A program made the translations under genes and the position numbers. 64,000 bases of DNA from Escherichia coli (GTDB lineage: Bacteria; Pseudomonadota; Gammaproteobacteria; Enterobacterales; Enterobacteriaceae), in NCBI RefSeq assembly GCF_022846255.1, contig NZ_AP025682.1, one strand, 5' to 3'. The notes beneath the pieces are model-generated. The model was not told where the DNA came from and did no database searches. It was given only the letters and a program-made list of their open reading frames with translations. How positions within the stretch are numbered: position 1 is the first letter of the stretch; every line of letters begins with the position of its first letter. Positions 26,095-28,073 of this stretch are shown piece after piece.

Positions 26095-26149
26095 ATGCAG
26101 AAATAACGAGCAAATGGCATCATTCCTGCTTTTGTCAGGGAGATCTACC

Positions 26150-26704
26150 ATGCTTATTGGCTATGTACGCGTATCAACAAATGACCAGAATACCGATCTA
26201 CAACGTAATGCGTTGAACTGTGCAGGATGCGAGCTGATTTTTGAAGACAAGATAAGCGGTACAAAGTCCGAAAGGCCGGGACTGAAAAAACTGCTCAGGA
26301 CATTATCGGCAGGTGACACTCTGGTTGTCTGGAAGCTGGATCGGCTGGGGCGTAGTATGCGGCATCTGGTCATTCTGGTTGAGGAGTTGCGCGAACGTGG
26401 CGTTAATTTTCGCAGCCTGACGGATGCTATTGATACCAGCACACCGATGGGGCGTTTTTTCTTTCATGTGATGGGGGCCCTGGCTGAAATGGAACGAGAA
26501 CTGATTGTTGAACGAACAAAAGCTGGACTGGAAGCTGCTCGCGCACAGGGACGAATTGGTGGACGTCGTCCCAAACTTACACCAGAACAATGGGCGCAGG
26601 CCGGGCGACTAATTGCATCAGGAGTTCCTCGCCAGAAGGTGGCGATCATTTATGATGTTGGCGTATCGACTTTGTATAAGAAGTTTCCGGTCGGAGATAA
26701 ATGA
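26150..26704 (+). CDS. pin: Serine-recombinase DNA invertase (Pin/Gin/Hin family)
   Basis: 184 aa from MLIGYVRVSTNDQNTDLQRNAL; catalytic Ser in VRVSTNDQ; C-terminal HTH; AGGGAG SD; adjacent to the invertible segment. Confidence 0.85.
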   Translation: MLIGYVRVSTNDQNTDLQRNALNCAGCELIFEDKISGTKSERPGLKKLLRTLSAGDTLVVWKLDRLGRSMRHLVILVEELRERGVNFRSLTDAIDTSTPMGRFFFHVMGALAEMERELIVERTKAGLEAARAQGRIGGRRPKLTPEQWAQAGRLIASGVPRQKVAIIYDVGVSTLYKKFPVGDK

Positions 26705-26784
26705 AACCGTAGCACGTCGTATGCAAGAACGTGCCACGGCTGGCTGATAAGCTTGTAAAAATATTGAACAGGGAGTGGAGCATT

Positions 26785-27432
26785 CTATGAAGCTAATTTG
26801 TTTAATTTCATTTGTAGTGACTTTACTTCTTGGTCGATAATGTCGAATCCCTTATTGACAGCATCTCTTAGCTCTGCATCAATATTTTTTATCCCTTGAG
26901 CATAATCTACCATTACATTTATTTTTGCATCATGTAATCTCTTATACATGGTTTTATCTTTGTTATTGTCTGCCATGCCAATAAGGATTTTTTCATAATC
27001 CTCAATGAGTTTGTTGTTTCCTTTAAATGATTGTATTAATGAGCGTGAATATGTGTATATGTTAATTATTGAGTCTCTAGCAGAATCATTTAGTTTTGCA
27101 ATGACATTCGCATTTTGCTCATAGAATGTGAAATTATCATCCCCTACAGGGAATGTGAGAATCAACATTTGTCCCGGTTTTATATTATCAATGTGTGTTT
27201 TCATCCTTTTATTATATAAATTGATTAGGGTGAAAACTTCTCCCTTAACTCCTTTTAATACTGAAAGTTGTAATTCAAGGGATTCTCTTTCTGTCTCTAC
27301 TTTAGACAGCTTAGCTTGTTGGGTAACTCCTTTTAGGGTAAACCATCCGCCAATAAGAGTACCAACTAGAGCTGTGAGGGAGGAGGATAACCATCCAGGT
27401 ATGCTATTTAAAAGATTACTAAATTCACTCAT
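26785..27432 (-). CDS. Hypothetical membrane-anchored protein (N-terminal TM helix plus charged helical region); cargo gene
   Basis: 215 aa; hydrophobic segment WLSSSLTALVGTLIGGWFTL then K/E-rich region; AT-rich composition unlike flanking DNA. Confidence 0.5.
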   Translation of the reverse strand: MSEFSNLLNSIPGWLSSSLTALVGTLIGGWFTLKGVTQQAKLSKVETERESLELQLSVLKGVKGEVFTLINLYNKRMKTHIDNIKPGQMLILTFPVGDDNFTFYEQNANVIAKLNDSARDSIINIYTYSRSLIQSFKGNNKLIEDYEKILIGMADNNKDKTMYKRLHDAKINVMVDYAQGIKNIDAELRDAVNKGFDIIDQEVKSLQMKLNKLAS

Positions 27433-27490
27433 TATAAGTACTCGCTAATATTGAACGATATATATATCAAATTATTATAAAACTCGTCAG

Positions 27491-27769
27491 CTACTGGAGC
27501 AGGCTACCTGAACTTCGATCTATTCCTGCATCCATATAGTTGATGGTCTTCTGGAGCTCTTCGATTAGGGCAACAGCTTTTGCTCGAGAAATGCATATTA
27601 GTTGATCCGGAAATTCTTGTAAGGGCCAGTTTGGTATACAGGCCATGTTATCAGTGAAGGATGCAGACAAGTAAACTTCATTGGTAACCAGAGAATAGCT
27701 TACCTCAAAATTGGTGAGTTCCGGCAAACTGCTAACGTTTGACTCTTTTCTGCGCATAATATTATCCAT
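27491..27769 (-). CDS. Hypothetical small protein (cargo gene; start uncertain, ORF could extend to 27919)
   Basis: 92 aa from MDNIMRRKE; the longer 142-aa frame includes a PPP stretch encoded by a C10/G10 tract; no strong SD at either start. Confidence 0.35.
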   Translation of the reverse strand: MDNIMRRKESNVSSLPELTNFEVSYSLVTNEVYLSASFTDNMACIPNWPLQEFPDQLICISRAKAVALIEELQKTINYMDAGIDRSSGSLLQ

Positions 27770-27851
27770 GACTGTAATTATGTACAGGTGATGGTCTTCA
27801 ATTTCGAAGAGGGAGTCAAGGGGGAGTCTCAAATGAACCGTTATAGAAAAA

Positions 27852-27861
27852 GGGGGGGGGG
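27852..27861. repeat. Homopolymeric tract G10 (C10 on the coding strand of the cargo gene)
   Basis: Ten consecutive G at 27852-27861. Confidence 0.9.
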
Positions 27862-28073
27862 ATCTTTGTGTTGCTGAACTTATGCAAAATTTTTTTGCAC
27901 CATAAATCCAACAACACATTCAATAACACATTGCTGTATCACTATGAAAATAAATGTGTTTTTATTTGATTTCACACATATCACAATTGATGCATTTTTT
28001 AGTGATTAACAGCGCCATAAGGAAACTCTCAAAACAACACAAACCGGGCGGGCATTATACGCGCATTCTTTAC

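Follow-up and report, generated by a model that had tools for sequence, protein, structure and literature searches.

The ten-guanine homopolymer of this Escherichia coli DNA (27852-27861, + strand; GGGGGGGGGG, read directly, and C10 on the cargo-gene strand) lies in non-coding DNA at one end of a prophage, between its integration site and its cargo genes, and its length is polymorphic among isolates. Positions refer to the window, which is the whole stretch of 64,000 nucleotides that was analysed. Together with the five adenines that abut it on the left (A5, 27847-27851; ATC follows on the right), the G-run is best explained as a slippage-prone mononucleotide repeat in a short spacer and not as a gene switch. 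The run is real and hypervariable and is probably neutral or nearly so, and a probability of roughly 0.7 is given to this reading. The spacer would be bounded on one side by the outermost arm-type site of the right arm of attP and on the other by the promoter region of the cargo (“moron”) genes. A non-coding tract in such a position is most likely an ordinary slippage-prone spacer.

In the window, G10 stands out by its length, since no other G/C run exceeds seven; the runners-up are a single C7 and five runs of G6. Under a naive composition model, 0.15 runs of G or C of at least ten would be expected per 64-kb window, so that the tract is unusual, as the sequence-only reading of this DNA had stated, yet chance is not impossible. 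A dinucleotide shuffle with G9 gave at least two matches in 11 of 100 shuffles, which makes it a control of no great stringency. Over the approximately 230 kb examined, G/C runs of at least ten are otherwise absent save for a second run in the cargo slot (described below), and two of them in one small region may point beyond chance. GATC (27861-27864) overlaps the last G of the tract. A Dam/OxyR-type switch at this site was set aside by inspection, as just one GATC is present, and a G-quadruplex is unlikely by inspection, as G10 by itself falls short of the four runs needed and 29 nt separate it from the other G-runs. A literature search on E. coli mononucleotide repeats found nothing specific.

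Length polymorphism was surveyed in 22 sources with the same cargo, whose sequences were read between TATAG and ATC. Thirteen alleles occur among them, namely A3G6, A3G7, A4G7, A4G8, A5G6, A5G7, A5G8, A5G9, A5G10, A6G9, AAAGGGGGAGG, AAAGGGGAGC, and AAAGGGGAGGGGG. The A-run is thus itself length-variable (A3-A6) and forms with the G-run (G6-G10) a purine stretch of 9-15 nt, of which every total length (9, 10, 11, 12, 13, 14, and 15 nt) was observed. The invariance across isolates that would have spoken against the sequence-only reading was therefore not seen. Conversely, the flanking columns contain only 0-3 variant sequences each, and seven of the alleles (A3G5AG2, A4G7, A4G8, A5G8, A5G9, A5G10, and A6G9) are found on prophage ends that depart from the window by just 1-2 substitutions in 633 bp. 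So many alleles on near-constant flanks identify the tract as a mutational hotspot on the evolutionary scale and G10 as its rare long extreme. Phage ends with other cargo carry A3G7, AAAGGGGGAGG, or AAAGTGGTGTT, and some of these are interrupted or lack a run.

On the wider scale of the 153 complete genomes that carry this phage end, judged by BLAST match length, G10 occurs in two, G9 in one, G8 in some 23, and G6-7 in some 30. Most carriers have G6-G8, and G9 or longer is limited to 3 of the 153, whereas a repeat that acts in a promoter spacer is expected to be kept long and uninterrupted across strains. Clonal sets (BH100 x3, the RIVM/HG9948 set, the O103:H2 group, and P4/FP4) are equal in match length; these are short tracts in consensus assemblies. 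No sign of the maintenance of a long tract, or of any particular length, was found among the carriers examined. A non-coding position, many length alleles, conserved flanks, and no preferred length or phase are the features by which a neutral non-coding simple-sequence repeat is recognized, and all of them are present here. Polymorphic mononucleotide repeats of non-coding E. coli DNA were reportedly described by Gur-Arie et al. in Genome Research in 2000. The present tract resembles them in being a non-coding run with strain-variable length, constant flanks, and no demonstrated function. It differs in that hardly any other G/C run of E. coli-type DNA is as long as G10 and in that it is placed in phage DNA, at the boundary between attP and cargo, and not in a core intergenic region.

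The tract may have originated from an interrupted purine motif, such as AAAGGGGGAGG or AAAGGGGAGC, that a base substitution would have turned into an uninterrupted run. Replication slippage would then have lengthened and shortened the run, G10 being the long extreme of a drift limited to a small prophage sublineage.

The surroundings of the tract belong to a temperate myovirus prophage, whose right-hand ~28 kb occupy positions 1-27970. This part contains the genes of a VapE-type primase-helicase, the terminase, the portal, and the tail sheath, along with a tail-fibre segment that is invertible and an invertase of Pin type. The copy of the prophage in ECONIH2 extends to the left via Q antiterminator, LexA-like repressor, DNA polymerase, SIR2, and TIR genes, and it ends at a tyrosine integrase adjoining yfhL, for a total of ~42 kb. 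In this early region (L011 9581-14001; L012 1-50), the DNA polymerase gene of the phage is flanked by the genes of the SIR2 family and with a TIR domain, which may serve in defence or counter-defence. A Mu-type transposable phage end, which had been guessed from the layout of tail fibre and invertase, was ruled out by the tyrosine integrase, the VapE primase, the DNA polymerase, the LexA-like repressor, and the Q antiterminator, and also by the constant position in yfhL with an 18-bp core.

The gene yfhL is a documented site of prophage integration (PMC3603311; PMC12029490). Here the insertion is in the 5′ end of the host gene, and the G10 tract lies 110 bp inside the right prophage end. Of the complete E. 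coli genomes, 5,425 of 5,426 match the window only from 27971 rightward, in DNA that is annotated as yfhL; the full phage end is present in 122-123 complete genomes and at least a part of it in 153. Comparison of attL and attR, together with the match of prophage-free genomes from 27971, defines a common core of 18 bp, AATTGTGATATGTGTGAA on the - strand (27971-27988), inside yfhL codons 10-16. The truncated host gene, yfhL′ (27962-28018, - strand; MALLITKKCINCDMCE followed by IK and the stop codon), is annotated as yfhL in empty-site genomes and points into the prophage end. Upstream of it, a perfect TATAAT was read from the sequence (28054-28059, - strand), which is probably the −10 element of the native yfhL promoter, now reading toward the tract and the cargo genes. 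The native promoter and the first 16 codons are in fact left at attR, facing the cargo genes. On the other side, the left arm of the phage gives yfhL a replacement start, MSLLITKRCINCDMCE (MSLLITKRC...; L012 4612-4660), with which the gene remains 86 aa at attL.

The integrase (WP_001138341.1) adjoins attL. In the virome contig L003 (IMGVR_UViG_3300018477_000015), the tract, right arm, core, left arm, and int are contiguous, and the contig therefore represents the excised attP form. The records vB_EcoM-606R2, 611R5, and 683R1 were discarded as attP sources since they contain host genes and are prophage excerpts. One of them (vB_EcoM-611R5, ON470588.1; L013 2993-5246) is a “complete genome” record that carries the host genes yfhH, pgpC, and tadA and consequently consists of a prophage excerpt with host flank, not of a packaged genome. 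An identical core at both junctions, a neighbouring tyrosine integrase gene, repeated motifs in the left as well as the right arm, and an attP that is intact after excision are the features of a tyrosine-integrase attP, and they are shared with the attP of lambda type. Unlike the latter, the core lies here inside the 5′ end of a host gene for which the phage provides a replacement N-terminus, and the putative arm motif, TGTGTTG, is specific to this phage group.

The right arm (attR arm, 27862-27970) is conserved among prophages with different cargo, and its TGTGTTG-type repeats are probably integrase arm-type sites. Four such motifs are present in the right arm and two in the left, and WTGTGTTR matches number three in the 110-bp right arm against nine in the whole 64 kb. 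The outermost putative site, TTTGTGTTGCTGAACT (27865-27880, + strand), starts 3 bp to the right of the G-run, and an inverted copy of this 16-mer, with 15 of the 16 positions matching, is found in the attL arm near int. Other copies of AATGTGTTR are placed at 27913 and 27925 (- strand) and at 27955 (+ strand), and the left arm has another two. Two inverted arm-type sites form an imperfect palindrome around GCAAAATTTTTTTGC (27867-27918; inverted repeat I2, 18-nt arms, 83% complementary), and the hairpin that it gives (27866-27920) dominates the predicted fold. In yfhL prophages whose cargo is quite different, homology to the window sets in at GTTATAGAAA, a few bases to the left of the tract, which is thereby located at the inner edge of attP, bordering the variable cargo slot. 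No intrinsic terminator or known RNA family was found at the tract; a sub-threshold match to mir-581 (19 bits versus a gathering score of 100) mirrors only the palindrome hairpin. A + strand mini-ORF (27868-27969) that would use the G-run as ribosome-binding site was also rejected, its GTG TTG start being the arm-site motif in a region conserved as attP.

The non-coding status of the tract depends on where the adjacent cargo gene starts. The sequence-only reading considered a start at 27919, with the tract translated as Pro-Pro-Pro and a single-base slip causing a frameshift, or a start at 27769. An open reading frame of 142 aa, in which the tract is read as PPP, does exist at 27491-27919 (- strand), and 27769 does carry an ATG; neither position is the true start, which is at 27757. 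The profile phrog_17793 covers residues 55-142 of the 142-aa frame only, corresponding to profile positions 1-88, and PGAP likewise annotates an 88-aa protein (WP_001253101.1) from 27757. The homologue in Salmonella phage SEN34 has 88 aa, begins at the same Met, and is 81% identical. Diverged homologues from Salmonella, Citrobacter, and other Escherichia, retrieved by a search of 5.8 billion proteins, are all 87-88 aa. Long forms were found only among near-identical E. coli copies, and these gene calls enter the core by three different frames upstream of Met55, switching at homopolymers. The ATG at 27919 falls inside an integrase arm-site motif, and the one at 27769 is not conserved, being CTG in L007. 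The 88-aa gene thus occupies 27491-27757 (- strand), and the tract lies 95-104 bp upstream of its start codon, whereas the segment 27758-27919 is a spurious N-terminal extension, non-coding and overlapping the attP arm.

An intragenic contingency locus has its repeat inside a conserved ORF and an upstream protein conserved in one frame. The present tract is 95 bp outside the gene, with three frames in use upstream, and a coding on/off switch is refuted by these sequence comparisons. In this regard, neuO, a cargo gene of the E. coli K1 prophage CUS-3, is said to be switched by heptanucleotide repeats, according to Deszo et al. in 2005. The likeness consists in an accessory gene of an E. coli prophage, near the phage end, with a simple-sequence repeat; the difference is that the neuO repeats are intragenic and set the reading frame, whereas the tract described here is outside the real ORF.

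The 88-aa gene is followed on the same strand by a gene of 215 aa (26785-27432, - strand; ORF list and PGAP), and no family match for either protein was found in Pfam, PADLOC, or NCBIfam. The SEN34 homologue of the 88-aa gene adjoins the attP and integrase of that phage and has a TTGACT box and a GGGAG ribosome-binding site, with no homopolymer. The phrog_17793 gene lies in SEN34 directly beside attP and int (L014 1476-2124), where the integrase is a different one and the arm motif is TGTACT. The attP-adjacent position is therefore conserved across phage groups.

The probable promoter of the 88-aa gene, as judged from the SEN34 alignment and a relaxed scan, is TTGACT, 17 nt, GACCAT (27791-27819, - strand). 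TTGACT (27814-27819, - strand) and nearby bases align with the SEN34 upstream region and are the only conserved promoter element. A stricter scan of both strands gave neither promoters nor terminators in the vicinity of the tract, TTGACT/GACCAT being below threshold. An 11-nt tandem duplication, AAGAGGGAGTC / AAGGGGGAGTC, is located at 27807-27828, and its junction forms the TTGACT box. The only promoter-like site of the strict scan lies between the two cargo genes (TTGAAC, 16 nt, TATTAT; 27451-27478, + strand); it points antisense through the 88-aa gene to the tract and attP and, in the excised circle, toward int. The tract itself is ~33 bp upstream of the TTGACT −35 box, at about −68 to −77 from the predicted start site. 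The sequence-only reading had placed it alternatively in the likely promoter, some 85-90 bp upstream of the gene. This is not sustained, since the conserved TTGACT is downstream of the tract and no acceptable −35/−10 pair straddling it was found in the strict and relaxed scans. A repeat of the promoter-spacer class would lie between the −35 and −10 elements.

A tract that is untranslated, lies outside the −35/−10 spacer, and is tolerated at all lengths of 9-15 nt is most likely neutral or nearly so. The SEN34 homologue manages without it, and a second polymorphic C-run in the same cargo slot indicates that it is not a unique designed element. Against neutrality, the tract lies near a plausible −35 box and adjoins a palindrome that is putatively protein-binding, and length differences that reach 6 bp, over half a turn of the helix, could alter upstream contacts.

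From these considerations arises the first alternative, in which tract length would determine how far, and in which helical phase, an upstream element stands from the cargo promoter, and expression of the 88-aa/215-aa operon would vary with it. Candidates for this element are the arm-site palindrome, with Int bound to it, and an AACACA box paired with TATAAC. Natural length variation and the position of the tract relative to the TTGACT promoter are in line with this idea. Furthermore, inspection of the - strand reveals a weak pair around the tract, made of AACACA inside the arm site and TATAAC (27840-27845), whose spacer measures 17 nt for an 11-nt purine stretch (A5G6, A4G7, A3G5AG2), 19 nt for A5G8, and 21 nt for A5G10, which would make G10 an “off” allele. 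However, AACACA agrees with the −35 consensus in 3 of its 6 bases, TATAAC is without the critical T at its end, and the pair was reported by neither scan. TATAAC is also not conserved in all phage-end variants, L009 having TTTAGC and L010 TTTAAC. The absence of the tract from the SEN34 locus, the rarity and frequent interruption of long tracts, and the lack of length differences within clonal sets speak against it as well, and promoter tuning is regarded as unlikely. The proposal that tract length could switch expression is accordingly left with its premise, as length does vary among isolates, whereas its coding route is refuted and its promoter route finds no support in the anatomy.

Homopolymer switches in promoters are known from the poly-G/C tracts of Neisseria meningitidis porA and opc and the poly-C tracts of Bordetella pertussis fim2 and fim3. 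These tracts lie between −35 and −10, or between an activator site and −10, and are long in all strains. The present tract is similar as a G/C homopolymer upstream of a gene with length varying between isolates, but it stands outside the promoter, is short or interrupted in most carriers, and is absent from the SEN34 locus. Moreover, mononucleotide contingency loci are not known to be in normal use in E. coli whose mismatch repair is intact. A bolder version holds that the tract is a contingency element of a temperate E. coli phage, whose length would set the helical phase of the attR palindrome (putatively bound by Int), or of read-through from yfhL, relative to the cargo promoter. This is considered decidedly improbable. 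If true, subpopulations of lysogens would express the 88-aa/215-aa cargo at different levels, and the second C-run, in contig L026, would be another case of the same strategy.

Read-through can also be considered by itself. Transcripts from the native yfhL promoter would run through yfhL′ and the attR arm into the cargo genes, and C10 with its C-rich, G-poor surroundings would be a rut site for Rho loading whose length sets the throughput. Indeed, yfhL′ with its perfect TATAAT points into the prophage, and no terminator was predicted in the scan between this element and the cargo genes. The - strand RNA of 27783-27880, past the yfhL′ stop codon and hence untranslated, has 37% C and 12% G over 78 nt (C/G ratio of 3.2), a C-rich and G-poor composition that resembles a Rho utilisation site. 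Against this, composition is all that the idea draws upon, the region is C-rich even with short tracts, and the strong hairpin at 27866-27920 sits upstream of the C-rich stretch. Such a role is judged highly unlikely.

A part in attP function has a slimmer chance still. The tract would be in this case a spacer or a binding region for accessory factors (Xis, IHF, Fis), and its length would affect integration or excision. It does lie 3 bp from the outermost arm-type site, inside a segment conserved across cargo types in which TAWAGAAAG is conserved. Yet lengths of 9-15 nt and unlike sequences such as AAAGTGGTGTT fill this position in correctly placed yfhL prophages, which argues against a requirement for spacing or sequence at the tract.

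An assembly artefact, which the sequence-only reading had named as the main alternative, is hardly credible: long-read assemblies often miscount homopolymers, and G9 versus G10 inside the long-tract sublineage could be such an error on a tract truly shorter than G10, but the identical G10 is sequence-confirmed in two independent complete genomes (ECONIH2 and TUM1880), G9 in two further sources (23CRST009, sequence-confirmed, and a virome contig with A6G9), and short-read metagenome contigs confirm G7 and G8 alleles on near-identical flanks. Recurrence in independent sources makes a pure artefact unlikely, although any single assembly may contain a one-base error.

The slippage-prone spacer borders a cargo slot (26705-27861; L007, L008, L009, L010, L026, L028) that extends from the invertase to attP and is filled by at least five different sets of genes, namely 215+88 aa, 215+88 aa plus 152+272 aa, 281+88 aa, a DUF2335 set, and a DUF4376 set. 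Its left border is a DNA invertase of Pin/Gin type (26114-26704, + strand; phrog_125, E = 1e-97; PGAP pinE). In SEC470/ETEC H10407 and O55:H7 DEC5E (L004 1-415; L008 1-217), the annotation gives a frameshift in the invertase gene, and tail-fibre switching is probably lost in those lysogens. The second polymorphic run of the slot is intergenic, between the 215-aa and the 152-aa genes, and reads CCTT+C11 in metagenome contig L026 (1915-1929) versus C6 in strain KOr019 (L028, about 2330-2340). It fits a ready expansion of G/C runs in low-constraint DNA of the same phage, to which replication by the phage's own DNA polymerase possibly contributes.

Were the tract a switch, E. coli would have in it a rare example of phase variation by a mononucleotide repeat, with cargo genes of a prophage as the target. 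As it stands, the tract is a further polymorphic non-coding mononucleotide repeat, a known phenomenon in an unusual place. It has practical use as a fast-evolving marker for a widespread yfhL-integrating prophage, and it also carries a warning, because gene callers make false long ORFs across it. The more useful result concerns the surroundings of the tract: attP has been mapped together with its putative arm sites, the 5′ end of yfhL is replaced by phage sequence, and the adjacent cargo slot occurs with these several alternative gene sets.
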